This document shows positions 35,196 to 64,000 of a stretch of DNA of 64,000 nucleotides, piece by piece (position 1 is the stretch's first letter; each line of letters begins with the position of its first letter). Location of the stretch: positions 81,530,001 to 81,594,000 of the forward strand of contig NC_092354.1 in the NCBI RefSeq assembly GCF_963676685.1. Direction: 5' to 3'. The stretch is from Mytilus edulis (taxonomy: Eukaryota). The notes under the pieces are model-generated. The model was not told the origin of the DNA and did not search any database. It worked only from the letters and a program-made list of their open reading frames with translations. Both the position numbers and the translations under genes were made by a program.

Positions 35196-35211
35196 CCTGG
35201 TCACGGCACCA
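35194..35211 (-). promoter_or_regulatory. Primer binding site complementary to the tRNA-His 3' end
   Basis: TGGTGCCGTGACCAGGAT directly after the 5' LTR. Confidence 0.85.
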
Positions 35212-35212
35212 A

Positions 35213-35385
35213 TATCTTAAAGTGGTATAATCAGACTTTTTAGGCACAAATAAGAAATACTAGCTGGTTTTACTTGTATTGATTCTAAACTCCATTTGCA
35301 CATAAATCTCAACGTCATAAGTAGCATGACGTTACTATACATACATAGCGGTAACGCGAACGTCTAATGAACACAGTCCTGAACA
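35213..35385 (-). repeat. 5' LTR (TG...TA)
   Basis: Direct repeat of 30319-30491. Confidence 0.95.
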
Positions 35386-36843: not shown

Positions 36844-39674
36844 GGATTAGGTTTGCGGGTTTTGTTAACCATGATTTGTATTTTCTTTATGAAACGAGTA
36901 ATGCAAATTCAATTTCAGTAAACTCCCGTATAATAATTAACAAGAAATGTATCTCTACTCAGTTGTAAGTTGAATTTTACATTTCATTTTGTCTTTGTTT
37001 TTTATTAAACATTTTTTTTTAATCACTTGAAATTCTCTTGTGACTGTATTAAAATTATCATAAATCTATTGGTTCATTGAAGTGCATATATTTTGTTATA
37101 GAACAGAATCTGAACCTCTACCCCTGTTGTCGACGATGGAATACAAAAGGAAAGGACGGTTATTATTGAAAGTAAATAGAGATTATACGCTACTCAAACC
37201 CTACAGATAACGTTCACTATACAGCCTCAGTAATACATATGTGCTTATGGTAATTAAACATGTTAAATAAGTAACGCGCAGCCATTGATGCATACTAGAG
37301 ATTCACAGGTTAAACAAAGATATGTATTCTTATGGTCATTGTTAAACGCGTGTGTAACATTATCTGTATCTGTCAGATAAAACAACAAATTGATTAGCCA
37401 ACATTGATATACCATGTACATCAAATGATATAGTTATTGTTTTATCTTAAACTAGAATACAATACACAAAAGACATGCTCAAATGATTGCCTACGTTTTA
37501 GGTAGAGTTGCAAATCCTAATGCAAACGTATAAAATATGTTTAAAAAATACGTTAAAAAAGCGTAGATCTGAACAACGAACAAGTGCTATACATAAACAC
37601 ATCCATTTCTTGGTTTAACATGATTGCAATACATTGGAAAGTTTTAATAAAACAATACCTTGTTAGTACAGATACTATGCAAGTGTACCATTGGGAACTA
37701 AAAGCTTAAACTTATCATGTACACTAATTGAAATGAAGATCTACTGAAGCTATTAATTGACATGTTATGAATATTTAACAAAGCCAATTATCCATAACCA
37801 ACTGCTGTTATTAAAATAAGTATAATTTTTTCTAAAATTTGTTTTAAACTAAATCTCGTTATCAGAAAGTTAGTGTCATATATGTCCCCCCCCCCAAAAA
37901 AAAAAAACAAAAACAAAAACAAACAAAGAAGAATTAAATGATACCGATACCAGGACACCATGACAACAAACCAGACGAAACGACTAACAACAGTCTACAA
38001 AACACGTCCCAAATAATAAGCACAACACGTTCTTTTATATTATATTGAATGCGACTTTTTCACAATTTGTATTACTTTCATTATCATTATCACTTAGCTA
38101 AAGAGTATTAAATCAAAATAGAAAAAAACAAATATTTCGGATTGCATAAGTTTGACCATTCTGATGTCAATGGTGACCTATTCTCGTTTTTGTTTTTTAA
38201 TCTTTCGATTCAAACACATTCCAGATTGATTTTGTTTTAAACAGTTAGTCTTATATCAAACACAATATTGAATTATATTCCAATTTGATAAGGTAACTGA
38301 CAAATAATTGTATGTATATGTCCTTAATGAATTTCAGTTTCATTGGTTATGTAGGATGATCTATTGTCTTATATTCTGGTATTCAGATATTTGCCTGGTA
38401 GAATGTGAATTTATACAACACATAATTGTAGGAACACCTCGATCCTGTTCCACCATCTTTGTCTCATAGATAGAATTTACATTTTTATGTACTTATTTTC
38501 CCAATGAATATGATTTTCAAGCTTGCAAAGTTTGAATCAACACTGCGCTATGCATTCAACACACGAATAGTGTAGTCAATCTTATAGTTCGAAATTTAAA
38601 CTGCAATACATTCAACTTCAATTGTGAACACTTTTAAATCTGCCTCATAACTAGATTACCCTTAGCTGTCTTTAGCAAAACTTTAAGGACTGAAAACAGT
38701 TTACCCTTCGGTTGTGCTTTCAATATGTGTCAGTATAAAATCTAAGAGGACATTTTAAATACTGATGATGTACTGTACATACATGTACGTCGGTTAAGGA
38801 AATAAAAATATGAAGTTCAAGTTATGAATATAAAGTAATTATTAGTCACTTTTCGGAGAATTCATTCTAGTTAAAAATGAAGATACAAAGCTATAAATAG
38901 GTTAAGATAAAAAAAAAATCGGTACAGCAATTTATCATGTCGATCGTTATACAGGAAATTAACAAGAAAATATGAGATGACAAAATGGTAACGATTTTTT
39001 TTTTATTTGTTTCTATTCCATGTAAATCATTATTCAAATTTCGAATATAAATAAAAAGCATAATTAAGTAAAAATGTCTGAATCGATGGATCACCCTGAA
39101 CACTGTCTAATTATGAGAAATTAAAGGTTGACAGGTAGGTGAAGCTTACATAAATGAATAGATAAATGAAAAATGTACAAATTGATACCCGATTTATATA
39201 ATTCCGAGGCCGATAGTTGGCACCAGAAGCGACGGACAAATATTCACTTTTTGATATGGGACAAGCTCTGATGTCCAACGGCCCCAGCTTGTCTAACAAA
39301 ACAGCCGTTGGCCGTCACAGTAATCTCGATATATTACAGATAGTGTGGAGAACATCATCAAAACGTAGTCAAAACAGTCAATCACTCTTCATTTGTATAA
39401 CATTTCATCCGTAAATGTTGTATTTACATATCAACTATTTGAGTTGATTACTTCTAGTGAATATGAAGATAAAATAATTAATTCAATGCACATAATCCAA
39501 AGTCAAACCAGACATGTAATGTTATAATCTTTATTTTTGTAATTTTAGATGATGAATTAAAAGGCAAATTGGTAATTGGCAATAACAGTTTTTTTGGCAC
39601 AACTTTTTGGACTTTTGGATCCTCAACGCTCTTCAACTTTTTACTTGTTATGCTTTATAGATATTTTGATATGA

Positions 39675-39718
39675 GCGTCACTGATGAGTCTTATGTAGAC
39701 GAAACGCGCGTCTGGCGT
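39675..39718 (+). ncRNA. Type I hammerhead ribozyme (family B, intact) in a repeat fragment at ~39592-39762
   Basis: GCGTCA CTGATGA GTCT TATGT AGAC GAAA CGCGCG TC TGGCGT. Confidence 0.92.
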
Positions 39719-41721
39719 ACTAAATTATAATCCTGGTACCTTTGATAACTATTTACACCACTGATTCTTGTTATGTTGTAATACATTGATTTTCGATAAA
39801 CCATAGTCATAGTACATAATTAAACACTACTATGAAACCCTACTAGGCATCATATTTCACCATATATTTATCGAAGTAAGTGTGCTATCATAATTCGTAT
39901 CGTAATGTGTAGGATGTTGTTTGACTGTGAGTGCTTTGATATTGATCTTAATATTGTCTGCATTTGTGCTACACATGGCGAACTTGGAACCTCTATATTT
40001 GTTGTTTCTTCGAAACTTGACAATGGATTATCTTACGGCGGTAGGAAATATGTATATTTGCGAAACTATAAGGTTAGCTTTCAGTAATGTTTCCGGTGAA
40101 GGTTATATACGGGTAACTTCAAAAATTATAAGTTAAACACTACGTTTGGTTATATGAAGACTATTACATATATACCAACAAAACAAAGCTTTGCATACAA
40201 ACTTTTGGTACTTAAGATTAAATGATAAAATGTAACTACCTGTTTCTGGTTAACTATCCCTTTAATTACGTCTCTTCATCATCAGCCATTTTAAGTCAGA
40301 AACTACAATCGTCACCAGGAAACACTTATACTTAACAAACGGAAATTTAATACTCACTGTTTTATTTAATGGAGAAATGGGAAAATTATTATGAGCTTTC
40401 CGTTTCTTCATCAGTCTGTGTCCGTCTTTTTTTAAATTATAATTTTTTTAGATTATTTTCTATTTTTAGGTTTTCTGTTGTTTTATTTCGATTACTTATT
40501 TGTAAAATTTTTTCTCTTTTGTTTTCTTTATAAACAAAATTAATGCCTTTCATCAACGTCAGCAATACCATATACAAAAGGACCCGAAATTACTAATGTG
40601 AAACCATCTTAATGAGAAAAACAAAGGATTAAATTGTGTACAACAAAATTTACGACAAACATAACAATATTTTAAAAAGTTGTTTGTTATACTTCTTGTT
40701 CTATGATTCAATGCAACGGGAGAACACGTAATCACTTTATCATCATAAAAGTGTGCATAATTTGAAGCCTGGTTACAATCAATCTTATGTCGATCCGAAA
40801 TTTGAGCAGATCTATATGGATATTATTCCTATGCGTTTCTTCACTACATTTAGGCGCACCGAGATATAATTAATGAGCGAAATCTATCAATGAGGTCGCA
40901 ATAATTGTAGTGATAACGAATTTCTAATCAGTACATACTCTGTGTTTATTCTGTGGTAAGTTACCAATTCGTTGTTGACATGAATGACATTTTATAAATT
41001 TACAGTTTGCAAAAGTATGAAATACCCTAATTACTCAGGATGTTCTTATCCCAGGCAGTAAACCTTAGCTGTTTGTGGCACATTTTTGAGAATTTTGGGT
41101 CATCAATGCTCTTCATCTTGGTACCTTTAATTACTATTAGCAAGTCGTTACAGTATGGTCAAACTGATTTAAAACCCGTCAAAATTTCATTCAGTTAATT
41201 GAACAACCAACCTGTTATCTTGATTATATGTTTCGTTGAATGATGAAGACCTCATTAGATAAACATTTGAAATTTATTTGATCCTTCTTCAAATGCTTAT
41301 GATATTCACCTTTTGGATTATAGCTCTTCATCTTTTATATAAGCTTTGGACTTCAAATATTTTGGCCACGAGCATCACCGAAGAGACATGTTTTGTCGAA
41401 ATGCGCATCTGGTGCAACAAAATTGGCACCGTTGATTTTATTACTACCACTGGGTCGATGCCTCTGCTGGTGGACTATTAGTCCTCGAGGGTATTACCAG
41501 CCCAGTAGCCAGTACTTCGGTACTGGCATGAAAATACGGATTTTTTGTGTTATTAAAATTTGCTGTTACATAGTATTAAAAATTATTATAAATAAAGGAA
41601 TGTATCTCCCTCATGCAAAGCTCTGATTCTTTTCACGAACTTGGCTTTACTTTTTGGACCTTTTGGATTATAGCTCTTCATCTTTTATATAAGCTTTGGA
41701 CTTCAAATATTTTGGCCACGA

Positions 41722-41765
41722 GCATCACTGAAGAGACATGTTTTGTCGAAATGCGCATCTGGTGC
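41722..41765 (+). ncRNA. Type I hammerhead ribozyme (family A, intact core)
   Basis: Stem I GCAUCA/UGGUGC, core CUGAAGA, stem II GACA/UGUC, GAAA, palindromic stem III UGCGCA, AUC cleavage triplet. Confidence 0.9.
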
Positions 41766-41942
41766 AACAAAATTGGTACCGTTGATTTTATTACTACCAC
41801 TGGGTCGATGCCCCTGCTGATGGCCTATTAGTCCCCGAGGGTATTACCAGCCCAGTAGCCAGTATGATTATGATATTCACCTTTTGGATTATAGCTCTTC
41901 ATCTTTTATAAAAGCTTTGGACTTCAAATATTTTGGCCACGA

Positions 41943-41986
41943 TCATCACTGAAGAGACATGTTTTGTCGAAATGCGCATCTGGTGC
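41943..41986 (+). ncRNA. Type I hammerhead ribozyme (family A, intact core, shortened stem I)
   Basis: As above, with G to T at the outer end of stem I. Confidence 0.85.
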
Positions 41987-42641
41987 AACACAAATGGTAC
42001 CGTTGATTTTATTACTACCACTGGGTCGATGCCTCTGCTGGTGGACTATTAGTCCCCGAGGGTATTACCAGCCCAGTAGCCAGTACTTCGGTACTGGCAT
42101 GAAAATACGGATTTTTTGTGTTATTAAAATTTGCTGTTACAAAGTATTAAAAATTATTATAAATAAAGGAATGTATCTCCCTCATGCAAAGCTCTGATTC
42201 TTTTCACGAATTTGGCTATACTTTTGGACCTTTTGGATTATAGCTCTTCATCTTTTATATAAGCTTTGGACTTCAAATATTTTGGCCACGAGCATCACTG
42301 AAGAGACATGTTTTGTCGATATGCGCATCTGGTGCAACAAAAATTGGTACCGTTGATTTTATTACTACCACTGGGTCGATGCCTCTGCTGGTGGACTATT
42401 AGTCCCCGAGGGTATTACCAGCCCAGTAGCCAGTACTTCGGTACTGGCATGAAAATACGGATTTTTGTGTTATTAAAATTTGCTGTTACAAAGTATTAAA
42501 AATTATTATAAATAAAGGAATGTATCTCCCTCTTGCAAAGCTCTGATTCTTTTCACGAATTTGGCTATACTTTTTGGACCTTTTGGATTATAGCTTTTCA
42601 TCTTTTATATAAGCTTTGGACTTCAAATATCTTGGCCACGA

Positions 42642-42685
42642 GCATCACTGAAGAGACATGTTTTGTTGAAATGCGCATCTGGTGC
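42642..42685 (+). ncRNA. Type I hammerhead ribozyme (family A, G-U at the base of stem II)
   Basis: CTGAAGA GACA..TGTT GAAA TGCGCA TC. Confidence 0.75.
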
Positions 42686-44377
42686 AACAAAATTGGTACT
42701 GTTGATTTTATTTTAATTTTTCAAAACAATAAAGATGTTCCACCCTCGTTATAGATTTACCAAACTGCATAATAATCTTATACTCGAAAGTAGCTTATGA
42801 GTTTTTGAAGAAAAAACGCACGTCTGAAGAAACCATTTTTGAACCTGGTATCTTACGATGAATTTACCCTAGATTTTGATATTTCATTTTTTACATCGAC
42901 AAACTACGCAACAATTCAACCTTAACAGGAACTGATCTGAACCCACAACTTAATATTGAGTCAAAACGCCTGTGCCGACGTGTTAGTTGTGCATTTTCCA
43001 ACATATTAGGTGTTTAAGAGATTGCAGCTCCTCCTTAGATTTTATTGAACGTCACCAGTGTCTGAACAGAAAGTTGACGAACCAGGAGTATGTTAAGGAA
43101 CTTCTCGACATTTTTCTAAAGCGAAATTTTTGGAAGGTACCAAGACCTTGTTATTAAATATTGCGTGTCAATGCAATTTCACAAAAAATACACGATGGTA
43201 TCGAAGCCTAGTGTATGCGTTCTGACGTTGTTTATCATCTTAATTCGTGTCTTCACTGTCTTTTTTGGGGGGATATCTATTTGACGTGGCTCTGTACTTG
43301 TACGTCCCGACATTGTTTTGATTGCACTGTATTTCATACATGCTATTGTATTATTATTCTATTAATGTTTTGGTATTCTGATCTGTCATATTTGCTAATG
43401 CTTTGCCTATATTGACTTTTGGGTTTCTTTTATACATCAACGGGACTCTTTTATACAATTGTAAGAAAGACAAGCGGCAAGAAGAGAAGGTAAACTTTTA
43501 ATTTAAATTCTCTAAAGGATATCCCTATATAACTAAAGACTATCATATGTTAATACTTTGAATGACAACATTATATTATATCTGTACCTGTGTGACATTT
43601 ACATTATGACGGCAAACGATTCTACGTTAGACTCAATGTTTGTCCCAATACTTAAAGTCTTTCAGTCGTTTATTGGTAAATTTGGCATACGAAGAAAAAA
43701 ATCAATTTATACCGTTTGTGCTCCTTTGTTTAATATTTGTTTGATGATGTTTTGATTAAGATGCTTGGGGTGCTTGTGCGTCCTGTCATTATTGCTTGTG
43801 ATGTTCTCGTAGTCTTGTCTTACGTGTTTGCTTGTTTTGTTTTGTCTGTATGCCCTTGGTGTTACTTTGATGTATGTGGAGTGACTATGTACTCATCCAT
43901 CCCGTTATTGTGTTATTGTAAACAGTGTGTGTTGCTTGCCTTCAACTTTGTTTCTTTGTTACATATATAACGTGACTCTGTACTTATACATCCCATCATT
44001 TGGTATTTGTAGTATGGACATTTATTTTTGCTTCTCCTTAACTTTTGCTAAAATGCTTGGTTTATATGCAATTGTGTGCTTCTTTCTTACATTTTTGCTT
44101 GATGTGTAGTGATTAAAATTATAACACAATGCCCACTGCTTCATATTTTTACCTTTTATTGCCTGGTTGTTTAGTTCACGCATTGTTGCGATTACAATGA
44201 ATTTTGATGCAACTGTCATACAAAAAGAATTTCAACTAGCTAGAAAACCAGGTTCAATCCGCCATGTTTTTTCATAAGAAAACGCCTGTGCCAAGTGTAT
44301 ATTGACAGTTGGTTTTTTTCTTTTTATTTGTGCTTGACCTTTTGATTTTGTCTTTTCCTATCTTTTCATATCGTTAA

Positions 44378-45461
44378 TTATCCATTTGTAGATGGTGACG
44401 TTCCCTTGTCACCATCTTACGGTGTTTATATATCTCAACTTGTACGATTCGCTCTTGTATGTAACAATGTTTTAGATTTTAACGAGAGAAATGTGTGTAT
44501 TACTGAAACTATTACACTAGGGTTTTCGATGTCACAAACTGGTCAAAACATTTACTAAATTTTATCATCGGTATAAGGACATCATTCGTAAATATAGCTC
44601 AATATGCAGACTTCTTATACGTTCAAGTATTTCACATCCAATTTTTTTATGGAAATATTCTTTATAAAGCACAAAGGTGTCAGTATTCACCTCAGAAACT
44701 AACAAAACATTTGAATAGACTTATTAAGAAGTGATATAGTTACGATACTGTTGTCAGGTCATTAAAAATTGCATATTTTGGCGTTAATATTGATTCACTT
44801 ACAGGGTCTTTGCATCGGAACTAAACACATTTATTCAAAAAACAGTTGTTGGCATGACACGGGTTATGTTCTTCTCATATATGTTATGATGGTATGATAA
44901 TAAACTCCTAACTGGAAGGATTGTACCTGATGTACATATGATGAAATCATAATCTTTCAGTCAGTTTAATTGAAGTCTGGAGCTGGCATGTCAGTTAACT
45001 GCTAGTAGTCTGTTGTTATTCATGTATTATTGTCATTTTGTTTATTTTCATTGGTTACATCTTCTGACATCAGACTCGGACTTCTCTTGAATTGAATTTT
45101 AATGTATGTATTGTTCTTCCTTTACTTTTCTACTTTGGCTGGAGGTATAGGGGGAGGGATGAGATCTCACAAACATGTTAAACCCCGCCGCATTTTGCGC
45201 CTGTCCCAAGTCAGGAGCCTCTGGCCTTTGTTAGTCTTGTATTATTTTAATTTTAGTTTCTTGAATACAATTTGGAAATTAGTATGGCGTTCATTATCAC
45301 TGAACTAGTATATATTTGTTTTGGGGCCAGCTGAAGGACATCTCCGGATGCGAGAATTTCTCGCTACATTAAAGACCTGTTGGTGACCTTCTGCTGTTTT
45401 TTTTTCTATGGTCGGGTTGTTGTCTCCTTGACACATTCCCCATTTCCATTCTCAATTTTAT
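44378..45461 (+). mobile_element. 5'-truncated Penelope-like element, second family
   Basis: PFVDGDVPLSPSYGVYISQLVRF; the 3' part matches 60615-61522 and ~23775-24110. Confidence 0.78.
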
Positions 45462-47442
45462 TTTGAATAGTGACATTCCATTTGAATTTGCCTTGGAGTT
45501 TATTTTCTCTATGATCTTACTTCCTAAAACTTTCGAGTATCAACGTACTGGCTGTAACACCGAAAATATTAGGCAATACATTGTGTGACGTCATAATTAC
45601 CGATAAACACATTACAAGGTAGTGTCGCTTTTGATACTGACTATATCATGATGAATATCTTAACTCGAGCTGACGGGCTGGATCAAAGGATTAACTTCAA
45701 AACTTATAGTAGGTAATGAATGTTTGACGTCATGAATTTTGAAGATTTATTGCACTAGTGCTATATTAGATTTTATTGCACGCTACCTTTTGCTTACTTT
45801 ATGTGGGAAATATTATATTGCTATGCAATAAAATATGTTTCCCTCCAAAATATACAAGGAGACACTGTAAAATAAGCATCGTAACTTCCGTAGTATTCTT
45901 TAATCTCGTAGATGTAGTTGAAATTCCGCGAAATATAATAACATATGTTGGCAAATAGTCGGAAACTATTGACTGGTAAACAAAAAACCTTGTAATTTGA
46001 CAATTAGTGAAAATATGGTGTACCTTTTCTTTATTAGAAACAGATAACTTAGGTATGATCATGTTTACTATTACTCAAAGGGAGTAGACAGCATAATGGA
46101 TCTTCATTTGATTGTAGTATTAACAGTTCATTAATCCGTCCATATGTCTTGTCGCTTGTCTGTCACATGACATGCTGGTCGTATTTTATCAGATGCTAAA
46201 TTGTATACTGCTAATAATATGAACTACACATCATGTTGTTTCAATAGATGGGTATTGATATATACACATATATACAGGACTGAGTAAGCCAGGGACATAT
46301 TCAAACATTTACCTGAAAATTCTATGTATATATATAAAAATAAATACAAGATGTATTGAACTTCCATATCCTTTTTATCTGCATATACTAGCTAGTTGGT
46401 TTTATTTAATTGTACTGATTATGAATCATAGTAAAAAGCAAGCATCAAGATGCAATTCATTTATTTACAACATAACAGAAAAAAGATCATTGACATGTTA
46501 TTTATCCACCTACAAAAAAAAGAAACAAACTTATCAATGAATTTATTAATCAATTCATTAGCTAATCTCCACTTTAATTACAAAGTAAACCATTTGATTC
46601 AAACAAACCATTATAGTTCGTATATGTTTAACAATTAAAAATAATAAGAATGCAAATAATGAATTATTGTTATTTATTCCAACAAATCATCAGGCACTAA
46701 TAAGTCAATTTGTTTAGCAGATTTAATCTAAGAACTTCACCGAGTTTTAACTCCTATTTTAATACCAAGCATATTGATACTCAGTTAGTCTACCTTAATT
46801 ACATTGAATAATGTTGTAATACGTATCTATGTAATCATACAATAGTTCCTCAGTAACAATATTTTACTAATTTGTCATCGCAAAACGTGCAAAATATTGA
46901 ATGCAAGATCAGCTTTTACATAACACACTTAATAGTAATAGAGAGCTAATAACTAGACTGCTATTCTAATAATCAAAGTATTGATATGTAATTAGTTACC
47001 TCAATAACTATTAATGATGTTATTATACGTACATAGATGAGTATATGTAATAATACCAGGGTTCCGCAATAACAATTCTTTAATAATGAGTTTGGTATCG
47101 CAAAAATTAAATGGTAGTATTGTCGTTTCGGTTATTTATATTATGTACCTATTAATAATGGATATTTAATAAATCTATCACTCATTTCAACACTATCATT
47201 GTGTTCAAACTGTGTAAACTTCTACTTCAATGTATTGTGGGAGGAATATTTTGATGAATGTTTTATGAATAATTTGTAATCTGTTAACACGCATACCTCG
47301 TTTTGTTCTTTTGTAAATTTGTATGATTAACAACCGCAAAATGAAATCATTTGTAACCTTTGATGTTATCAAATCTCTTCAGGAAATACATACGTGTATT
47401 TAAATAAAATCATCATAGATAACAGGACTAAATTTTGTATAT

Positions 47443-47487
47443 ACGCCAAACGCGCGTTTCGTCTACAAAAGACTAATCAGTGACTCT
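47443..47487 (-). ncRNA. Family B hammerhead with a G8-to-U core mutation, within a retrozyme fragment at ~47405-47680
   Basis: Minus strand GAGTCA CTGATTA GTCT TTTGT AGAC GAAA CGCGCG TT TGGCGT. Confidence 0.7.
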
Positions 47488-47850
47488 CCAATCTAAAAAT
47501 TTTAAAAGGCCGAATAAAGTACGAAGTTGAAGAGCATTGAGGACCAAAATTCCAAAAAGTTTTGCCAAATACAGCTAATGTAATATATGCCTGAGGTAGA
47601 AAAGCCTTAGTATTTCAAAAATTCAAAATTTTGTGAACAGTAAATTTATAAATATAACCATATCAATGATAATTCATGGTATGTCGATTCGCAATTGAAG
47701 CACCACATTATGGATGTAATTTCTATGCGTGTCTTCCCTACATTCAGACACATACATATAGAAATAATTGCCAAAACAAAAAAAAAACGTACCAGGGAAT
47801 AATTGTAATGGTAACAATGTCTAAACAAAATGGATGTTACCTTGTCGTGT

Positions 47851-50307
47851 TTAGTAAGCCTTTGGTTTACGCATGCCTCCAATAAGTCCACCGGAAGGTC
47901 GTCTGTTGATACCATATCCACGGTAACCGCCATAACCGGAAGCATTAGTAGACCACCATGGCAGCCATTTACAACATGTTCTGTTCCACCAAGAATAGAA
48001 GGGCAGACGACATTGACTGCTGATTTGTATTTCTCCCTGACGACAGGACCAGCTACGACAGGTACACCACCATCTTCCTGTATAACAATAAGGTACTGGA
48101 AGTCTCAGAATTTAAGCATTCTTGGTAATACTTGCAAATGTGTAAAGCAAAATTAGCGATCAATTATACTATCAATAGACCTTTAGATTCTAAAACGGTG
48201 AATTAACTTTTCGATTTGAGGTTTTAAGTATAAATAAAGGATTTCCAGTTTTCATTAAAAAAAAAAAATAGTATATTTCGACACAGCATATAGTTCGGTT
48301 TTTTTCTTTGAATAATCGTTTGTATGGCCATTAAACATCAATATACAATGATATTGTTCATGACAGAAACATAATTCTATGATAGGATGATATTTTTTTA
48401 TTATATAAAGCGCAAATAATTGCAAAAAGATTGACAAAGATCATATATCAAATATGCAAGATTTGATTTGTAAAATTGTGAGTAAATCAAGTCATCATGT
48501 TAAACAGAATCGAATTATGAACGCAAAACTAGTTATTGACTTGGACAATAACACTCAACAGTGACGAAAAACGCTAGTTTCAACAAATAATTGCCACTCG
48601 AATCAAGGTGTTTAAGACATTCATAAAACAATGAAATTTATTTTATGATAACAACTATTATTCGTATATCGATTATTTGTATTTGTTTCAAATAATGTTC
48701 TCTTTACTTATAAGATATAAGAACTCGCCAACACTTGTACTGTTTTTTTTAGATGTTCCAATATTAATGCCTTCAACATAAATAAAGAGACCCCAACTGT
48801 CAAAAAGCTAACTGTTTCAACATAAAATGTATCGTTTATTTTAGTTTTGAAATGTTGTCAAAAAAAAGAGATAATTCAGACAATATCTAATAAAGAAATA
48901 TATACTGATTCAGATCTCCTGAGTTATATATCGATATAAACGTACATATATATGTATGAAGTGTTAATGATTGTGAACCAAGTCCTCTATATCATATCTT
49001 ATATATAAATATGAAACCATGGCTCCAGTTAGGAAACACATACACAAAAACGACAATGTGTGGATAACAATAACTAGTAGTTTAATGAATTTGAGGTAAC
49101 ATAATTTTTTTAATTTTCCATTTTTTTTAATAACAAAATCAAATAAACAAGGAAAGCGGTACATACCTGCTCCAAATCCACCACCATTATTACCTCCGTA
49201 CCCATATGGCCCACCCGGTCCAGATCCTGGTCCTGCACCACCAGGACCACTACCTATACTGCCTCCTAAACCATATGGCCAACCAGTACCAGAACCCGGT
49301 CCTGCACCTCCGGGACCACTACCTATACTGCCTCCCAAACCATATGGCCAACCAGTACCAGAACCCGGTCCTGCACCACCGGGACCACTACCTATACTGC
49401 CTCCTAAACCATATGGCCAACCAGTACCAGAACCCGGTCCTGCACCACCGGGACCACTACCTATACTGCCTCCTAAACCATATGGCCAACCAGTACCAGA
49501 ACCCGGTCCTGCGCCTCCGGGACCACTACCTATACTGCCTCCTAAACCATATGGCCAACCAGTACCAGAACCCGGTCCTGCACCACCGGGACCACTACCT
49601 ATACTGCCTCCTAAACCATATGGCCAACCAGTACCAGAACCCGGTCCTGCACCACCGGGACCACTACCTATACTGCCTTCTAAACCATATGGCCAACCAG
49701 TACCAGAACCCGGTCCTGCACCACCGGGACCACTACCTATACTGCCTCCTAAACCATATGGCCAATCAGTTCCAGAACCCGGTCCTGCACCTCCGGGACC
49801 ACTACCTATACTGCTCCCTAAACCATATGGCCAACCAGTTCCAGAACCCGGTCCTGCACCACCGGGACCACTACCTATACTGCCTCCTAAACCATATGGC
49901 CAACCAGTACCAGAACCCGGTCCTGCACCACCGGGACCACTGCCTATACTGCTTCCTAAACCATATGGCCAATCAGTACCAGAACCCGGTCCTGCACCTC
50001 CGGGACCACTACCTATACTGCCTCCTAAACCATATGGCCAACCAGTACCAGAACCCGATCCTGCACCTCCGGGACCACTACCTATACTGCCTCCTAAACC
50101 ATATGGCCAACCAATTCCTGTACCTGGTCCTGCACCACCAGGACCACTACCTATACTGCTTCCTAAATTATAGGGCCAACCGATTACATTTCCCTGACCT
50201 TGTATACTGCTACTAAGGGGAACACTACTGACCTTATTGAGTGCCAAAGTTTGCTGAAAAGACAAAAGTACCGTCAAAATGGTAAATAAGCTTCTTGGTG
50301 TAGCCAT
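47851..50307 (-). CDS. Secreted Gly-rich repeat protein A (~455 aa) with a C-terminal six-Cys module; exons 50307-49167 and 48077-47851
   Basis: TATA box upstream. Signal peptide MATPRSLFTILTVLLSFQQTLA. 14 x 23-aa repeats GWPYGLGGSIGSGPGGAGPGSGT. Phase-1 intron (GCAG/GTATGT...ATACAG/GA). Exon 2 reads GRWWCTCRSWSCRQGEIQISSQCRLPFYSWWNRTCCKWLPWWSTNASGYGGYRGYGINRRPSGGLIGGMRKPKAY*. The structure is conserved in paralogue B. Confidence 0.92.
49215..50182 (-). repeat. Coding minisatellite, 14 x 69 bp
   Basis: Near-identical units encoding the 23-aa repeat. Confidence 0.95.
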
Positions 50308-50360
50308 TTGTACTGTTACTGGGAGAATGTCCTGTGAGAACCTATACCACATCTTTCTGT

Positions 50361-50367
50361 ATTTATA
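50361..50367 (-). promoter_or_regulatory. TATA box of gene A
   Basis: TATAAAT about 55 nt upstream of the ATG, conserved in paralogue B. Confidence 0.7.
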
Positions 50368-50979
50368 CAAACCTATCACCAGCTGAGAACAGTAAGAAAA
50401 ACTAATATAGAAAGTGATTGAAATCACACAATGCACTCAATCGTCTTTTTTTCGATAATTTTATGTTACTTTTCTTTTATTCGTTTATTTGAACATTAAT
50501 AAAGGTTAAAGGTTAAAGATTGAAACAAATAATCAAATGTAACACATGCTATATGTCAATTGATCGTAAACAAGCTTATCACCACAAAACACGTTTCTAA
50601 AAACCAATTCAACATTACTTTTGTAATAAAATATGCACTTTTATTTAGGTGTTTCTTAATATACAGTAGAGCAAACCCGTTTTAAACACAACTTTAGATT
50701 GATGAACGTCTGACTCATTTATTGACCACATCATTATACAGAAAACATCGTGACAGACTTTAATTTACTGTAAATTTAGAAATAATTGCATGCATTTTTT
50801 ATCGCGATATTTTGAGATGAAACACAATAATGCAAAATCAATTAAATCCCTTTTAGTCAAACCCGAATGCTTAAAAATTATCAAATATAAAAATGTCTCT
50901 CCCAAATCAGAAGCCTGTAATTCAATGGTTTTCGTTTGTTGTGGTGTTTTTTTTGTTCATGTTTTGTAAATAAATATTA

Positions 50980-52330
50980 ATTATTTTTGGAGTGTTAAAA
51001 ATTCTTAAGAGGTTTTAGATAAAATACATGCTTTTAATGGTCCTTATAATTCTGTTGACAGTTATGATTTTTCTACCTGGTACACTACACTTCCACACAA
51101 TTGTATAAAGAAAAAGTTTTTGTATTTGGTAAAATTGTCCTCCGCGAATCTCATTGTTATTTTATTTGCTGTTACTCGTTTAATTTATTTATATATTGCT
51201 ATGCATTTCAGTTCATGACCACACTCAGTGAAGACCCATCATTATTATATTTGGTAGTTACATTCAAAAATACTTACCGTTTTCTGGATGATATTTTTCG
51301 TTGAATAATCCAGAGTTCTCTAAATATACTTCTGAAATTATCCCCAAAAACTTACTTTCACTAAATCTACAATAAACAGTAGCAGTTGTCCTTCCTAGAT
51401 TTAGACATTTCAATTTCAAACGGGAAACCACATACTAAAGTTTACATCAAAAGAGACGATTTTTCATTTCCTATTGTTAATTATTCTTTTTTAGACGGCG
51501 ATGTGCCTTTGGTTAAACCGTACGGTGTTTATATATCCAAACTCGTTCGGTATGCCCGTGTGTGTTCTGATGTAATAGAATTTGAAGAACGTTATCAATG
51601 CATCACTGGGAAATTATTGTGTCAGGAATTTCGATACCATAAATTACTTAAAACTCTACTAAATGCTTTCATAGATACAAAGATTTGATTAATAAATTTG
51701 GCTGTGAAAACTTTATAAAAATGGTTTTTCATATCCTAAATTTTACCGGTATATTGTACTTAAAGCGAAAAAAATCACCATGTGATCCATTTAAACTCAT
51801 CGAACCTTTAAGTAAACTTAAAAAATAAGGGTTATCGTCCCAATATTGTAATTATATCTCTGAATATAGTTTACATTGGCACTAATATCGATTTAGTCAT
51901 TAGCAAATCAAAACATAACTAAACTGTGTCTTCTTTTGAGGGGGGATCTAAAGAGACACAAACATGTTAATTGTTATCTCTATAAAAGTCGGTCCTCACT
52001 ATCCTACTACCTGTCGATACATTTAATTTTGACATTACACAAGTAATGTCCTCTCTGACTGTTCATGGCGTTAAGTACTAAATCCCTAGGATGTGTTTTA
52101 GTTGATTTCAGTCTCTGATGCATGATTTTCTTTTAATTGTGTTTGGATTTTAACTAGCTGTCAGTAACTGAGAGTACTCTCAAATCGTTGTTCCTTGTTA
52201 ATTCGACCTGTTGTTACTGTTTATAATGCTTTTTTGTTAGTTTATATTAATATGGATGTCTATTTATCAGCTTTGATTTTTTGGAATATCTTCTTATTTT
52301 CACTTTTTCGTACTACGTTTGTATAAACTT
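50980..52330 (+). mobile_element. Decayed Penelope-like RT fragment inserted in the left duplication arm
   Basis: YDFSTWYTTLPH, TYRFLDDIF, SFLDLDISISNG...KRDDFSFPIVN across several frames; boundaries approximate. Confidence 0.75.
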
Positions 52331-53784
52331 TAAGATTATTCTCCTTAAATCTGTACAGGGAAGTTTGCGATAGCTCTAATTGTATAGTTGTATTGTTGAT
52401 AATCACCCCAATTTATGTCAAGTGTTAAATTATGTATTCATATGACCGATCTTTCTTGGTATTCCTAATTATTGGAAGAATTTTATACACATAAGTAGTA
52501 TACATAAAACGAACGACACAGTTTTTTTTTCAATTACCTGTATATATTATTAAAAGCGTTTTTTTTTTCAATAGTGATTTTTTTCGAAGAGTTTAATATT
52601 TCGAAGTGGTGTCTTGGCAAGGGTTGTTTGGACTTGTTTGTTTGCTGTGTCGTTCATAGTGTGTTAATTTAAATCTTTTGATTGAGTGAAGCCTTCCAAT
52701 TTTTATTGTGTTTTTTTCTATGTACATTGTAGTGATGTTATGCTATTGATTCAGAAAAAGGGAGAAGGTTTCGTTGCATTTAAACGTTTAATCCCGCTGC
52801 AAATGTATGCACCTGTCATAAGTCAGGAATCTGATGGACAATAGTTGTCGTTTGTTTATGTAATTTATACGTATTTCACGTTTCTCATTTTTTTATAGAT
52901 TAGACTGTTGCTTTTCCCGATTGAATAGTTTTACACTAGTAATTTGGGGGTCCTTTAAAACTTGTTGTTCGGTGTGAGACAAGGCTCCGTGTTCAATATC
53001 TTACATTAACCTATAATGGTTTACTGTTATCAATTGTTATTTGGATGGCGAGTTGTCTTATTGGCACTCACACCGCATCTTCCTATATCTATAAGGCCGT
53101 TAGTTTTCTTGTTTGAATTGTTTTACATTGTCATTTCGGGGCCATTTAAAGCAGAGAATGTAATATGAGTTTTGCTCATTGTTGAATGCCGTACAATGAC
53201 CTATAGTTGTTAATTTCAGTGTTATTTTTGGTCCCTTATGGAGAGTTGTCTAGTTTGCAATAATACCACACCTTCTTTGTTTTTCTAAGTTTAACGATAC
53301 GTACCAAATCGAATTGTCGCGTTAATAAGCATATCGCAATATATTTTGCCAATTTCTTTTATTTGGTATAAGCACTCTTCATTGAAAATCACATAGCAAA
53401 ATTTGTATATTTGTCAAAGTTTAATGACATTAGTTGGTTATTTTGTTTACCTTTTTTGTCGTGACTAGATGTCTAATATGTCCTTAAGTCTAGTTTCCGG
53501 ATATTTTGTTTTCTTCAATCAATTCTAAGCACCACAATTTTTTGAACGGTACGAAATGTCGACACCATTTTATTTGTTTGTTTTCGTTGCTTTATTAAAT
53601 TACAAGAACATATATTCATCATCCTTTTCCAATGTCGTTGCTGAATTGATGCAGTTGTTGCAAATATCCATGTAAATCATGGAAGATGTACGCTGTTTTA
53701 CCTGTTCTAATTTATTATTTTGATGTTCTTATGAATTAATTATAGTGAACTTGCATTTAATTCTATTGTATACCTATATATATA

Positions 53785-54748
53785 TATACGAGTCTAAATT
53801 GAAAACTACGTTCAAACCTATGATTGTGATGGATATAAACCGCAATTTTTATACGTGTGCTTGTAAAACAAATTTCGTTGTAGAAGGCTATAAATACAGC
53901 ACAAACAACATTTTCCAAAAGACCAAAAAAATGAAAAAGTATATTTAAACAAAACGCATTTGACTAACAGGTCGAACAACTGATGTTCTTTAACCCTGCT
54001 GACTGCCATTGGCGATTGCCAAATAAAATTGATCACAAGATGTAACAAAATGGATCTTAATATCAATTTAATACTAAACAGAAAACAATTAACAAGTGGC
54101 CACGATGTTAAGCCACAAACATAAGGTGTCAATATTTTTTTTGAACACCAGATCCGGATTTCGACAATAATTGTCTCTGCAGTGATGTTAGGGATGGAAA
54201 CGGTATTTGGAAGGCCATATAAAAAGTACCCTCATTTTTAGATAGACTCTTGAATTTTAAGAGTCAATATAGGATGAACGGATCATATAAACCGGAGGGA
54301 AAATATGATACAAGCCCAAACGAAAAAATATAAACGAGTCTAAATTTAAAACTACGTTCAAACCTATGATTGCGTTGGATAAAAACCGCAATTTTCATAC
54401 GTGTGCATGTAAAACAAATTTCGTTGTAGAAGGGTCTAAATACAGCACAAACAACATTTTCCAAATAAAATTGATCACAAGATGTAACAAAATGGATCTT
54501 AATATAAATTTAATACTAAACAGAAAACAATTAACGTGTGGCCACGATGTTAAGCCACAAACATAAGGTGTCAATATTTTTTTTTGTACACCAGATCCGG
54601 ATTGCGACAATAAATGTCTCTTCAGTGATGTTAGGGATCGAAACGGTATTTGGAAGGCCATATAAAAAGTACCCTCATTTTTCGAAAAAAGTACTCTCAT
54701 GTTTAGATAGACTCTTGAATTTTAAGAGTCAATATAGGATGAACGGAT
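53785..54748 (-). mobile_element. Tandem dimer of a third retrozyme-like family (C), hammerheads at 54145-54188 and 54588-54631
   Basis: Two direct copies. Minus-strand consensus ACATCA CTGAAGA GACA n5 TGTC GAAA TCCGGA TC TGGTGT; each copy has one different core substitution (CTGCAGA; GCAA). Confidence 0.8.
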
Positions 54749-54749
54749 A

Positions 54750-54916
54750 TATACAACTCGTCTTAACATCAACCCAACAATGTTAGATCTTTAAATTTGC
54801 TTTCGCAAATTTTTTGTCCTTCCCTCGCCGGGATTCGAACTCATGCTACTGAAATATCGTGACACCAAATCGTCTGCACTCTTGCCGTCCCGCTAGACCA
54901 CACTACCACCTGGGCT
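54750..54916 (-). mobile_element. tRNA-derived SINE
   Basis: A-box TGGTAGTGTGG and B-box GAGTTCGAATCC, followed by a non-tRNA tail. Confidence 0.7.
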
Positions 54917-56059
54917 TTAAATGTTGTATATCGTGTACTATTATTTGTCTGATTGTCTTTTTTCTTTTTAGCAATGCTGTTGTCGGTTTATTTTCGATAT
55001 ATTAGTTTAAATGTCCAGCACAATAGTGAAGATGTGGTATCGGATTGAAAATAAGTTTTCTACACGTAAGGGCAACATTTCAATTTAAATTTGAGCATCC
55101 GTGGAAGAATTGTTTTAAGGTTGTGATAATGAAATCCTTGACTTTATAATTTATCAGTAGTATATAGACGCACTCCTTTAAGGCCAGAAATTCACATCAT
55201 TGACGGAATCACAAACTCATATGGGATATGAATGCAGCAAAATAATTTGCTATTAGATTTTAAATACGACCATTTGAATAGATACAATGTTGGAATTCAA
55301 TACTGATAAGATTGTGTGGAATTGTAGTCTTTCTGGTTTTGTTTTTTGTCGTTTTTCATTGATTGACATGGCATTGGTTTTTTAACGATTGAATGCCCCT
55401 TTGGCCTCTTCCGACTGTCTTTTAACAAGTTGTTTTCATTCCGGAAAACATTTCACATTTCACGTTATTGATACACTTCATTATTCTTTGCCTTCTCACG
55501 CTTTTTATGTTTTTTAACTGTCTTATTTCTGATAGTGGAAATTCAGAAATTATTGCGATATTTTATTAACGCGAAAATTCGATTTGGTACGTATCGTAAA
55601 ACTTAGAGTATATACAAAAAACGAATGTGTGGTATGATTGCAAACGAGATAACTCTCCACAAAAGGATAAAATAACACAGAATGTATAGCTATAGGCCTT
55701 CAACAATAAGCTATAAAAGGTCCCGAAATCACAATGTAAAAGATATTAAACGAGAAAACTAACGGCTTTATGAATGTACAAAACACGAACGAAAAACACA
55801 CAAACAAACGACAACCATTGAATTACAGGCTCCTGACTTTGGAGAGGCATTTTTATATTTGATATGCTTTTATGCACTAGGTTTTGACTAAAATGGTTTT
55901 AATTGATTTTGCATTATTTTGTATCATCTCAAATATCGCAATGATAAATTCACGCAGTTATTTCTAAATAACAGTGTTGCTTTCCCGTGTTTAAAAGTCT
56001 GTCACGATGTTTTATCTTCAACTTTGTACTTGTTTGGCTTTATAACTATTTTGATCTGA

Positions 56060-56103
56060 GCGTCACTGATGAGTCTTATGTAGACGAAACGCGCGTCTGG
56101 CGT
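56060..56103 (+). ncRNA. Type I hammerhead ribozyme (family B, intact) in a ~115-bp insertion upstream of gene B
   Basis: Identical to the 39675-39718 motif. Confidence 0.92.
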
Positions 56104-56581
56104 ATTAAAATTATAATCCTGATAACTATTATGAATCATGCTGAGGTCAATAAATGAGTCAGACGTTCATCAATCTAAATTTGTGTCCAAACGGTTTTGC
56201 TCTACTGTATATATAGAAACACCTAAATAAAAGTGCATATTGTATGACAAAAGAAATGTTAAAATTGTCTTTAAAAACTGTCTTGTGGTGATAAGCTTGT
56301 TTACGATCAATTGACAGAGAGCATGTGTTATATTTGATTATTTGTTTTACATGTTTCAACCTTTATTTGTCAATGATCAGACCATCAATTGACAGGTAGC
56401 ATATGTTATATTTGACTATTGGTTTTAATCTTTAACCTTCAACCTTTATGTATGTTCAAATAAAAGAATAAAAAAAAACTTACATGAAATTAACGAAAAA
56501 AAGACGATTGAGTGCATGTTGTGATTTCAATCACTTTTTTCTGTTGGTTTTTCTTACTCTCCTCAGCTGGTGATAGGTTTG

Positions 56582-56588: not shown

Positions 56589-56636
56589 ACAGATAGATGA
56601 GAGATAGGTTATCACAGGATCCTAGAAACAGTACCA

Positions 56637-58616: not shown

Positions 58617-59146
58617 ATATGACTAGGTACAATCCAATATGTATTGATTAGAAATTTATAACTACAATTATTCCCTAACAACCTACAATTTATTTCGGTG
58701 ATTATTTCTAACTCTGTGTTTCTAATTTAGGGAAGAAACGCATGGAAATTACATCCATAAAATGGTGTTCAAATTGCAAATCAACATAACATTAACTGTA
58801 ACCAAGATTCAAATTAGGCACACTTTTTTAATTAACAAAGGATTAAGATTTCTCTCGTACCATTATATCAAATGACAAGAAAAAAAAAACAACCTATAAC
58901 ATGTCCTTTACATTAGGGGTTCAATTAAAGGCTTAAAGACACCTAACGAATTGAAAATAACTGTCAAATTTCGGACTTGGTATTGTTCAAAGAACTTAAT
59001 GGATATAATCTGGCTTGGTAGCTTGGTAAACATTTTACTTCTTTGACAGCAGCATTACAGTCTATACTATTGACAGCAATGTGTGAAAAAGTAGAAGACA
59101 TACATTTTATCAAATGTTTGGCCTTTTTAAACTTTTTTGGATTCGA

Positions 59147-59190
59147 GCGTCACTGATGAGTCTTTTGTAGAAGAAACGCGCGTCTGGCGT
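59147..59190 (+). ncRNA. Family B hammerhead with a broken core-proximal stem II pair
   Basis: CTGATGA GTCT TTTGT AGAA GAAA CGCGCG TC TGGCGT. Confidence 0.75.
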
Positions 59191-60614
59191 ATATACTAAA
59201 TTTAGTCCTGGTATCTATGATGAGATTATTTACCACCACTGGGTCGATGCAACTGCTGGTGGAGATTTATTTCCCCGAGGGTATCATAAACCCAGTAGTC
59301 AGCACTTTTTGTGATATCATGAATTGTCATTTATATGGTTATATTTTTTCATTTACTGTTTACGAATTTTTTAAATACTAAGACTTCATGTGAATTTCAC
59401 GTGAGATTGATGTTAAATTCAGGTGAGCAAATATGCCTGTGTATCTATGATGAGTTTTCTTTCTTTATCAAAGGTTATATCTAACTACACGTATGCATTT
59501 CCAAAAGAGATTTGATAACAACAAAGAGGATACATTTGACGGTTGTTAAACATAGTTTTATAAACTAAAAAAAATAAAAAAAATTTAAACTGATTACAAA
59601 TTAGTTGTAAAACATACATCAAAACATTCCTCCCGCAATCGATATTAGTTGTTTTTTGTTAATATATTTTGTACATAATAAGTTCGTTAGTTTTTCCGTT
59701 AAATGGTTTTACATATTTTATTTCGGGCTCTTTTACAGTTGACTATGCGTAGTTGGCATTTTGCATTGTTGAAGGCCGTACGGTGACATGTAGCTTTAAT
59801 ATTGCTGTGTCATTCTGTCTTTTGCAGAGAATCGTCTCATTGACAATCATACCACATCGGTTTTAATTAAAATTAACACACTGATATTGATTAAATAAGT
59901 GTTGCGTTCATTGTATATTCATTAAGTATGTCATGTATATTTGAAAAATAGTTACTTTGAACAGTTTTACTATTTATCGACGTGTGTTTGGTAAAGGACT
60001 GAGTAATATAGTGAATCTCGCAACTTTATTTTATCAGGTTTCCATTTAATATTCTTTTTTTTTGGATGACACATTATTTATAGAGGGGCGAAAGATACCA
60101 AAGTAATAGTCAAACTCCTAAATTGACAATAAACTGACAACACCATGGCTAAATGAAAAAAAAGACTAACAGACAAATAATAGTACACAAAAAAAACAAC
60201 ATTGAAAACTAATGACTGATAACACGAAACCCACTAAACACTGGAGGTGATCTCATACGTTCCAAAAAGGGTAAAGGACACTAAAATCATTATGTTGATT
60301 GTTTGGCATTATTGAAAATGGTTAGACACACACGAACTGTGGTTCACATTTTCAACTTGGTAATGTAAGGGAAGATTAGTGGATGCGTTGTGTTAAATTA
60401 ATTATTTCATTGATAACTTTTCTTTGTCTTTTTTTGTAGGTAGATATATGACATGTCAACGATCTTCTTATTTTATCTTGTAAATAAATGAATCGCATCT
60501 TGATGCTAGCTTTTTATATGATACATTATCAGTACAGTAAAACAAAACCAACTAACTAGTATGCAGATGAATTTAAAAGGATATGGAAGTACAATGCAAG
60601 TTTACGTGAATTGA

Positions 60615-61522: not shown

Positions 61523-64000
61523 TTTTGTATATATATAGAAATGTCAGGTTTGTAATTTAATATGTGGCTGGCTTACCCTCGGTTTTTGTTTGTTATCTCG
61601 ATTTTGTTTTTTGTCCATGGATTTATGAGTTTTGAACAGCGGTATACTACTGTTGCCTTTATTTACTAAATCCTGTATATATTATACAGAATGTACACAT
61701 CCATGTATCACCATCACTGCTTGTGACCCGATATATAAATTTGTTGAAGAGTTGTCACTGGTTCAGACGTACTTATACATAATTTAATACCCATCTATTA
61801 CAACATGATGTGCATTTCATATTATCAGCTATAAAAATTTAAATCTTGAGAAAAAACGACTAATGTGACAGATAATTAACAGTACTGATGAACGGATTGG
61901 CAATCTGTTGATAATACAAACAAATGAAGACCTATTTTGCTTTCCCCTCATTTTTACCAAATGTAAACAATATTATACGAGGCGCGTTTTTGGCGTTTTA
62001 AATTTTAAATATCAAATGTCCGTTTCTGTGTGTGTTACATTTCAGTGTTGTGTCGTTGTTCTCTTCTTATATTTAATGCGTTTCCCTCGGTTTTAGTTTG
62101 TTACCCCGATTTTGTTTTTTGTCCAGGTATTTATGAGTTTTGAACAGCGGTATACTACTGTTGCCTTTATATACCACAGTTATCTTAAATTTTAGTTTCA
62201 CTATTTGTCAAATAGAAGCGTCGAACTATTTGACCAGTCAATAGGTTCTAACTATATATTTGACCGAAAAAGTAAAATCCCAAAAATACTGAACTCCGAG
62301 CACAATTCAATAGGAAAGTCCCTAATCACATGGCAACATTAAATGAAAAAAAGCCATTAAACGAATGGACAACAAATTTCATTATCCTGACTTGGTACAG
62401 GCATTTTCAAAAGTAGAAAATGGTGGATTGAAAACTATCTGCTTGCTTTGTTTAAACATTGAAGGATCATATCACTGTAATCTGGCGACATATAGATAAT
62501 TAGAAAAAACCATAAATTCGTCATTCCAAAACTATACTGTTTACTGTTACATCATGTACATTATTTATTGTGGTAAATGTTTATATGCGTTAAAAAAACT
62601 CACAAAGCTTTTTAAAAGAAGTTTTTGAATTGTGACTTGACAATCGGTTTGTTGTGGTAACTGTAAATCAAATGAAAGATTGGATCGCGGAATATAAAAA
62701 CTGTACTTAGCAGAACAAAATATTACATCTGTTTACTAGAAAAATGTAAAATCACAAAAGTACTGAACTAAAGGAAAATCAATTGAGAAAGTTCATAATC
62801 ACATGGCGAAATCAAATAACAAAACGCATCAAAAACGAATGGAAAAGAACTGTCATATTCCTGACTTTGTACAGGCATTTTCAAATGTAGATACTAGTTG
62901 ATTACTAGTATATGATCCTTTTTTCAATTATGTCCTTGTTTTGATTTACCTTACAGCTGTTTATAAATGTTATTTAATTGTTCAATTGAATTTCAAAATC
63001 AATTGTTCCATTACTCCACATTATGATACTAGTAAAATATGGCATTTAAAAATCATACATTTAGCACTTGACATAATCTTGCCCTTCTGGGATAGTTGGG
63101 AATCAAATACTCGCCAAAATGTATATGTCGGTCTTTCAGAACAATACAGTTGTCTGACTTAATATACACCGTTAGGTGTGTAATATTGTCCCCTACAAAT
63201 TTATGTTAAGGTGGTACCTAAAACTACAGGGAGACAACTCTGTAAAATCAGCTAAACGTTTTATATTACGTTGTGTTGTAAAGGAAATGTCAATGATCAA
63301 AATCGTTTAACGCATCATGTAAATGTAACGGAATTTGATGAGACTGTTATTTAAATGAGAGGGTTAGCGCTATAGAACCAGGTTTAATCCACCATTTTCT
63401 ACATTTGAAAATGCCTGTACCAAGTCAGGAATATGACAGTTCTTGTCCATTCGTTTTTGATGCGTTTTGTTTTTTGATTTTGCCATGTGATTATGGAGTT
63501 TCCAAATTGATTTTCCTCTGAGTTCAGTATTTTTGTGATTTTACTTTTTACCTACCATTATTATCTTGACGGATGGTAGTAGTGATGTGGTATTTACATA
63601 TTATTCAAGAATAACTGAAAACAGTGTGTGTTTCTATTTCTGCCTCGGGAATAGTTAACTTAAGCTGTATTTGGCAAAAACTGTAGGAATTTCTGGTCCT
63701 CAATGCTCTTCAACTTCGTACTGTTTTTGGCATTTTCTGCATTTTTTATTCGGGCTTCACTGATTAGACTTTTGAAGACGAATCGCGCGTATGGCGTAAA
63801 TATAACGTGTCGATACTGGTATATATGATGAGTTTGTTCATATTTTCGTTTTATGGACAATTTGTTATTCTTCGGTATTAATGATCTGTTTTATGGAACG
63901 AGATATAGGTAATCTCATTATAGATACCAAGATTAAAATTTGTATCTACTTTTTTTTGTAAACTCATCGATTTCAATATAACAAATTTGTATGCAATTGC

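Follow-up and report, generated by a model that had tools for sequence, protein, structure and literature searches.

Type I hammerheads with self-complementary loops in three retrozyme families of Mytilus edulis: family-biased dimers in silico and proposed separate helper signals

We analysed a 64,000-nucleotide stretch of the Mytilus edulis genome (assembly GCF_963676685.1, contig NC_092354.1, positions 81,530,001 to 81,594,000 of the forward strand; hereafter the window, with coordinates counted from its first letter), in which a cluster of hammerhead ribozyme motifs lies between 39675 and 56103. They are hammerheads of the canonical type I, carried by genomic copies, for the most part damaged, of the retrozymes A, B and C, three families of non-coding retroelements arranged in tandem. 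We consider it probable that their self-complementary loop III persists by letting neighbouring copies in one multimeric transcript form a double hammerhead in cis, and that the families are separated by the helper signal. The core of this finding is ordinary, as the palindrome and the dimer model are already in print and A and B fit known mussel retrozymes.

Results

Hammerhead anatomy and copies in the window

A core scan of the window for the 44-nt hammerhead layout, allowing up to three mismatches, returned ten hammerheads within 39675-56103 and four further ones outside that range. From 5' to 3', a 6-bp stem I is followed by CUGANGA, by a stem II of 4 bp closed by a 5-nt loop, by GAA and by a self-complementary stretch of 8 nt; C17 and the closing strand of stem I come last. 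Within the range, three hammerheads belong to B (39675(+), 47486(-) and 56060(+)), five to A (41372, 41722, 41943, 42292 and 42642, all (+)) and two to C (54631(-) and 54188(-)). Scan and sequence bore out the stems I, II and III, at their places, and the three families that a sequence-only reading of this DNA had listed. That reading had described minimal hammerheads with an 8-nt palindromic stem III; the stretch is indeed self-complementary, but it forms a 2-bp helix III closed by a tetraloop, and with 6 bp in helix I and 4 bp in helix II the motifs are canonical type I rather than minimal hammerheads of the Penelope-like element (PLE) type, helix III being retained and not absent or reduced to conserved nucleotides. 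A 2-bp stem is self-complementary by definition, and the informative part is the 4-nt loop only (GCGC in A and B, CCGG in C). The further statement that every change preserves pairing is correct between family types but fails between copies: core and stem II are fully kept in four of the ten, one has a G-U pair at the base of stem II, and five, both C copies among them, are core-broken.

The retrozyme copies of the window and their hammerheads are:

5561..5907 (-): two old hammerheads, A-like, at a spacing of 303 nt
39593..39763 (+): truncated solo copy of the B1 retrozyme; its hammerhead, 39675-39718, is intact and predicted to cut after 39712
41305..42712 (+): tandem array of family A units; hammerhead spacing 350, 221, 349 and 350 nt; ends at the A fixed end (unit position ~34)
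41372..41415 (+): A hammerhead, broken core CCGAAGA (U4C)
41722..41765 (+): A hammerhead, intact, helix III AUGCGCAU
41943..41986 (+): A hammerhead, intact core, outermost stem I pair lost; a shortened 221-nt unit precedes it
42292..42335 (+): A hammerhead, broken core GAUA (A14U)
42642..42685 (+): A hammerhead, G-U in place of G-C at the base of stem II
47401..47678 (-): B2 fragment; hammerhead 47443-47486 core-broken (G8U) and with C17U
53782..54753 (-): C insertion of just under two units; begins at unit position ~408 and stops at the fixed end ~370, flanked by TA runs on either side
54145..54188 (-): C hammerhead, helix III AUCCGGAU, broken core CUGCAGA (A6C)
54588..54631 (-): C hammerhead, helix III AUCCGGAU, broken core GCAA (A13C)
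56015..56120 (+): solo B1 fragment; hammerhead 56060-56103 intact
59125..59386 (+): B2 copy beyond the range of the sequence-only reading; hammerhead 59147-59190, stem II broken
63637..63838 (+): decayed B2 copy

No full-length unit flanked by two intact hammerheads was present in the window, and the two hammerheads of the C insertion lie 443 nt apart, versus 545-570 in intact arrays. A broken copy could still be cut by its neighbour's core within a double hammerhead. Genome-wide, the general hammerhead motif had 31,616 exact matches (8 for the reversed control), with 77 B-type, 20 A-type and 3 C-type among the 100 listed. Rfam at its gathering threshold gave no hammerhead hits on these motifs. 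When further families with a shorter stem II or loop II were sought, 493 matches were obtained and each of the 100 listed was a deletion variant of one of the three families; the search did not extend to a longer stem II or to other closings of stem I.

Three families and a subfamily

Unit lengths were 349-354 nt for A, 355-368 for B, 545-571 for C and 534-545 for a subfamily of C, termed D. The units are short, AT-rich and non-coding (longest open reading frame from an ATG 34-72 aa in the six units examined), and every unit of the A, B, C and D arrays carries one type I hammerhead, on one strand. Identity is 71% over 326 nt between A and B1, and about 80% between B1 and B2. A and C have in common ~110 nt around the hammerhead, with 29 of 30 core positions identical, while their bodies align with a score of 46 (shuffle mean 41, maximum 62; A vs B1 scores 187); judged on these alignments, the C body is unrelated to that of A, and its size lies within the published retrozyme range.

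The C hammerhead had 680 exact genome matches, the intact C form coming from outside the window, and an internal C hairpin had 1,355 dispersed matches at up to 3 mismatches. Subfamily D (87-92% identical to C, loop CUAG, helix III AUCUAGAU, 220 genome matches) surfaced in a search for other central loop III pairs, in which CUAG was the only recurrent type among the 100 listed of 455 matches. No autonomous element bearing the C hairpin was seen in 30 loci examined of the 1,355 matches, all 30 being C or D copies, and the Naiad or C-terminal-endonuclease PLE bodies examined had no C homology, save for separate adjacent C insertions. C/D represents a further retrozyme, for which we did not find a published description in the retrozyme literature searched; the supplement of PMC7229834 may bear on this.

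Thousands of DNA copies, many of them dispersed, have fixed 3' ends and variable 5' ends; these are scars of retrotransposition, not signs of RNA-to-RNA replication. The single-strand hammerhead (one per unit), the sense-biased reads and the thousands of DNA copies do not fit an autonomously replicating viroid-like RNA, which would have ribozymes or abundant RNA on both polarities and no DNA stage.

The helix III loop

Genome counts by loop III were 680 for CCGG and 220 for CUAG, with 33 for CUGG and 31 for CCAG, these single-step variants being counted only with a C-type loop II. Independent decay would yield ~1.5 doubles versus the 220 CUAG observed, so that the double change was amplified and the single changes were not. 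In metagenome sequences, 90 loci matched a pattern with the loop left free and 15 passed a filter on stems I and II (75 dropped); five of these were mussel-type, and the loops of all ten others were self-complementary (AGCU, GAUC, ACGU or GGCU; eight strictly, two with G-U), compared with a window background of 7% strict and 15% with G-U. Seven distinct loops from unrelated sources were all self-complementary. Among ten distinct hammerhead types, the two loop 'pairs' showed 5 and 6 two-sided changes; the corresponding table had 140 of 140 cells paired, and is informative for helix III only, because its rows were picked for paired stems I and II. From these comparisons the loop palindrome looks selected. 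The metagenome and type data match the canonical metazoan type I motifs, which, in the part of PMC4209133 consulted, have a helix III of 1-2 bp with a palindromic loop of 2-4 nt and may adopt a dimeric fold in tandem repeats; the palindromic loop is thus a general and already published feature.

Six metagenome contigs of 44-55% GC each bear one hammerhead, alike in geometry but with a different palindromic loop.

Dimers are family-biased in silico

Dimer folding was computed with nearest-neighbour models on isolated 44-mers. The active double hammerhead had energies of -27.3 (AA), -29.5 (BB), -24.3 (CC) and -20.8 (DD) kcal/mol in homodimers and of -13.4 (AB), -12.8 (AC), -3.3 (BC) and -16.2 (CD) kcal/mol in heterodimers, which were 6-24 kcal/mol worse than the homodimer mean. 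Upon unconstrained cofolding, the active dimer was the minimum-energy fold for AA, BB and CC, tied for DD, and was this fold in none of the six heterodimers, where the probability of the trans A15.1-U16.1 pair was never above 0.02. The helix III duplex between copies had 8 of 8 pairs in AA, BB, CC and DD, and for none of the four 44-mers did the monomer active fold have the lowest energy.

The claim that different palindromes make dimerisation family-specific therefore held in these computations as far as the active dimer goes, but the palindrome itself is not family-specific: the GCGC loop is common to A, B1, B2 and the hammerhead of a TA-targeting PLE (A-GCGC-U), and the whole 8-mer is identical in B1 and B2. 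Taken alone, the 8-mer paired between A and B at -8.9 kcal/mol, vs -10.5 and -13.3 within the families, and stem I contributed more than helix III to the penalty of the A/B heterodimer (8.8 vs 6.2 kcal/mol).

All 66 distinct pairs of tandem neighbours within 700 nt were of the same family (34 CC, 13 BB, 11 AA and 8 DD), at loci chosen by family-specific searches and hence not a random sample; a tethered partner would thus be at hand in cis. In practice, dimers would be family-biased, and this bias is likely a by-product: any palindrome-preserving change makes the old and new forms mismatch, so that no selection for difference is needed, and nothing in the data shows such selection between the palindromes. 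Searches for an A/B junction at the cut site gave 1 and 59 pattern hits, and none of the 13 loci inspected of these 60 candidates was a junction; rare chimeric reads are possible, 24 of 1143 rows being listed in the loose-end tables. We found no publication on family-specific hammerhead dimerisation in the literature on retrozymes or a dimer code, on which the supplement of PMC7229834 and Lunse 2017 may bear.

Insertion ends and candidate helper signals

The fixed 3' end lies at unit position ~34 in A, 42 in B1, 49 in B2 and 370 in C, and the 5' ends are variable. Among ends that do not continue into a next unit, 31 of 39 ran into (TA)4 in C/D, versus 0 of 6 in A and 0 of 22 in B; in a smaller locus set, (TA)n was found at 30 of 35 C ends. 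A and B stop before a GC-rich hairpin weakly resembling the start of the Naiad element recovered with a reverse transcriptase (RT) fragment of the window (z 2.1-3.2; C -0.2). [quoted passage not shown] C elements were present in 3 of 30 GIY-YIG loci of 3.3 kb. A second C start point, ~38 nt past the fixed end, was seen in 4 of 47 C copies, the window copy among them. From target and end motif, the likely copying enzyme of C/D is a PLE whose GIY-YIG is C-terminal, which we call Neptune-like on the strength of domain order, an upstream CxxC and target, and not of a tree.

A tRNA-headed short element that ends TTTAGACGAGTTG before (TA)n lies at 54754-54915(-) and at five other loci, and often adjoins C copies; it has a TAGAC end motif like that of C and may use the same helper. 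The 3' untranslated regions (UTRs) of two PLE families (four loci) each have two alternative 3' ends, ~85-100 nt apart and both with TAGAC..TATA, together with hammerhead-like motifs with altered cores.

RNA from the repeats

Reads from four raw-read runs under one species label (6-18% of each run read) were mapped on single units; they were mostly 90-99% alike to the units, and thus come from other individuals or a congener. In most stranded libraries, a first mate on the minus strand denotes sense RNA. Head-to-tail reads, joining unit end to unit start, had the minus-strand first mate in 206, 317, 83 and 17 cases vs 22, 36, 40 and 18 for C (the first two runs being X21 and X22), and were sense in 642, 726, 1285 and 83 cases vs 71, 95, 89 and 67 for B1; the sense bias of C and B1 was thus present in three of four runs and absent in X24. 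At the C fixed end, depth in X22 went from 529 to 448 in sense and from 107 to 29 in antisense, while in X24 both fell ~four- to fivefold. Part of the depth at the C hammerhead derives from A reads.

Discussion

Proposed mechanism

According to the literature, read-through transcripts of such elements self-cleave, a host ligase closes the cleaved units into circles, and the circles are thought to be copied back by PLE enzymes. In A, B and C, loop III is likely kept because two neighbouring copies of one transcript would fold into a double hammerhead in cis, and the functional divide between families would be the helper signal: A and B end just before a Naiad-like hairpin and avoid TA repeats, while C and D end at the TAGAC site with insertion into (TA)n, a Neptune-like PLE being their likely helper. 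The ~110-nt hammerhead module was likely passed from an A-like element to C, or the reverse, after which loop III would have changed twice, one change separating GCGC from CCGG and the other CCGG from CUAG.

Several observations weigh against this account. In a review, most invertebrate type I hammerheads are reported to self-cleave efficiently as monomers (PMC7761336), which makes dimers of any kind less necessary, and a genomic repeat cloned from mussel cleaved at ~0.1 per minute, the number of hammerheads in the clone not being evident from the part of PMC7229834 consulted. The selection argument for loop III comes down to one clear event (C to D) at a hypermutable CpG, with the single-step counts confined to one loop II type, and the tandem neighbours had been collected family by family. 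Predicted circle folds were 52-63% paired, and their stability did not exceed that of 25 shuffles (z -1.5 to +0.1). The resemblance of the A and B hairpin to Naiad is weak; the TAGAC-TATA motif is short, was noticed after the fact and is not at the ends of two other TA-targeting PLE families. In the RNA runs, reads did not pile up at the predicted cut site, and the head-to-tail reads fit circles or long linear multimers without separating them.

Alternative explanations

The self-recognition code proposed in the sequence-only reading, taken as an evolved one, would mean that the palindromes diverged under selection so that co-resident circular RNAs dimerise in trans within their family only. 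The energy cost of every heterodimer, the near absence of the trans pair and the lack of A/B junctions among the inspected loci agree with this, A, B and C reads occur together in the same libraries, and loop III differs between A and C though the rest of the core is nearly identical. Yet the loop is shared by A, B1, B2 and a PLE hammerhead, and the whole motif by B1 and B2; the A/B 8-mer duplex alone still pairs at -8.9 kcal/mol, vs -10.5 and -13.3 for its same-family counterparts; same-family partners are already tethered in cis; and mismatch of diverged self-complementary motifs is expected without selection. Moreover, trans cleavage would open the circle, which the element must avoid according to the text of PMC7229834 drawn on here. 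A comparison of monomer with dimer cleavage had been put forward as a check on the code, and print touches on it in part, as monomers of this class do cleave (PMC7761336, and the clone of PMC7229834 as far as its account goes). An evolved recognition code is thus unproven and partly contradicted, and we hold it improbable. It is unlikely, too, that the hammerheads act as monomers only, with the palindromic loop an inherited or mutational leftover that has no present role. Motifs with a 2-bp helix III do cleave as monomers, CG to TA amounts to two CpG deaminations, and only three loop types appeared among the listed matches of the genome searches; this explanation has difficulty, however, with a double change that was amplified to 220 copies when the single changes were not (33 and 31), with seven unrelated loops that are all self-complementary, and with the dimer, instead of the monomer active fold, being the minimum-energy fold of the 44-mers.

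That family C is a satellite-like remnant of a PLE pseudo-LTR (LTR, long terminal repeat), amplified at the DNA level and not a circle-forming retrozyme, seems to us very unlikely. A 2026 preprint (bioRxiv 10.64898/2026.07.22.740005), in the portion consulted, traces the retrozymes of vertebrates back to pseudo-LTRs and proposes that tandem copies were amplified locally, and C has its target and end motif in common with PLEs; against this stand the ~1,355 dispersed hairpin matches, the fixed 3' and variable 5' ends, sense-strand RNA without a depth drop at the fixed end and, apart from adjacent separate insertions, the lack of C homology in the PLE bodies examined. The cis double hammerhead with helper-separated families remains our preferred account. 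An extension of it is conceivable but doubtful: the hammerhead module would have moved between RNA parasites of two PLE helpers (Naiad-dependent A and Neptune-like-dependent C), and loop III would then have been recoded twice (GCGC, CCGG, CUAG), palindromic each time and unpairable with the old form, giving natural orthogonal double hammerheads that keep co-expressed circles from mutual cutting or splicing.

Comparison with known systems

The papers compared here were consulted in part. The non-LTR retrozymes of Mytilus galloprovincialis (Cervera and de la Pena 2020, PMC7229834) likewise have type I hammerheads, AT-rich tandem repeats, two families in ~350-390 bp units and abundant sense RNA; on size, A (349-354) and B (355-368) agree with them. 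They comprise ~5000 motifs in two families, whereas here there were 31,616 matches, and a third family whose body, 545-571 nt long, is unrelated and which includes a CUAG subfamily; C exceeds their 150-450 bp unit range, and may have been grouped there with A because the two hammerheads hardly differ. The sections of that account used did not mention the fixed ends, the TA targeting or the proposed helper signals. Our motifs agree with the canonical metazoan type I motif and with the model of a double hammerhead given by Cervera and de la Pena (2014, PMC4209133), which have 6 bp in helix I, 4 bp in helix II, 1-2 bp and a 2-4 nt palindromic loop in helix III, and a dimeric active fold between tandem copies; homo- versus heterodimer specificity, computed here, was not met in the excerpts of that paper.

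Vertebrate non-LTR retrozymes (Li, Clavereau, Pollet, bioRxiv 10.64898/2026.07.22.740005) form many families per genome with units of 51-972 bp, a range that includes C, and PLE helpers have been proposed for them; in the portion consulted, the preprint covers no molluscs and gives no example of one hammerhead module carried by two bodies whose insertion ends differ, as in A and C here. Naiad and Neptune PLEs (Craig et al. 2021, PMC8557442) are described with 5' truncation, partial tandems, a 30-40 bp extension, which the second C start at ~38 nt resembles, and a (TA)n preference; unlike them, repeats A, B and C encode no protein. In that account the (TA)n preference is Naiad's, whereas here the TA-targeting C resembles C-terminal-endonuclease elements and the Naiad-like A and B avoid TA runs.

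Neighbouring elements

The window contains three broken RT-thumb fragments (YGVYIS motif) of Naiad type, from different families, at 44390-45460(+), about 8800-9200(+) and 51300-53090(+), with intact relatives in 4.4-kb tandems. The last of them is:

51300..53090 (+): broken 3' part of a Naiad-type PLE, RT thumb and 3' UTR, end approximate

Its intact relatives have an N-terminal GIY-YIG and a C-terminal RT. An inverted pair of paralogous genes, at 47649-50436(-) and 56601-58600(+), likely encodes a secreted Gly/Pro/Trp-rich repeat protein (69-bp x14 and 54-bp x9 repeats, short Cys/Trp-rich last exon); the spacer between the two holds most of the hammerheads lying between them, and the Naiad fragment. 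Long open frames of 832, 274 and 432 aa at 30610-35216(-) resemble what we take to be a BEL/Pao-type LTR retrotransposon. A 21-bp unit that has the palindrome TTGTGCGCACAA as its basis forms two arrays, at 15283-15627 and 36447-36810, and other tandem repeats lie, with units of 259, 295 and 168 bp, at 7547-8285, 9843-10442 and 12140-12477, without a hammerhead by the core scan.

Significance

C and D together amount to a compensatory experiment made by nature, which bears on the double-hammerhead model in an invertebrate believed to have hammerheads that work as monomers. Together, A and C, with a near-identical ribozyme on unrelated bodies and with different ends and targets, offer a clean pair of templates for asking which PLE copies retrozymes and which signal it reads.

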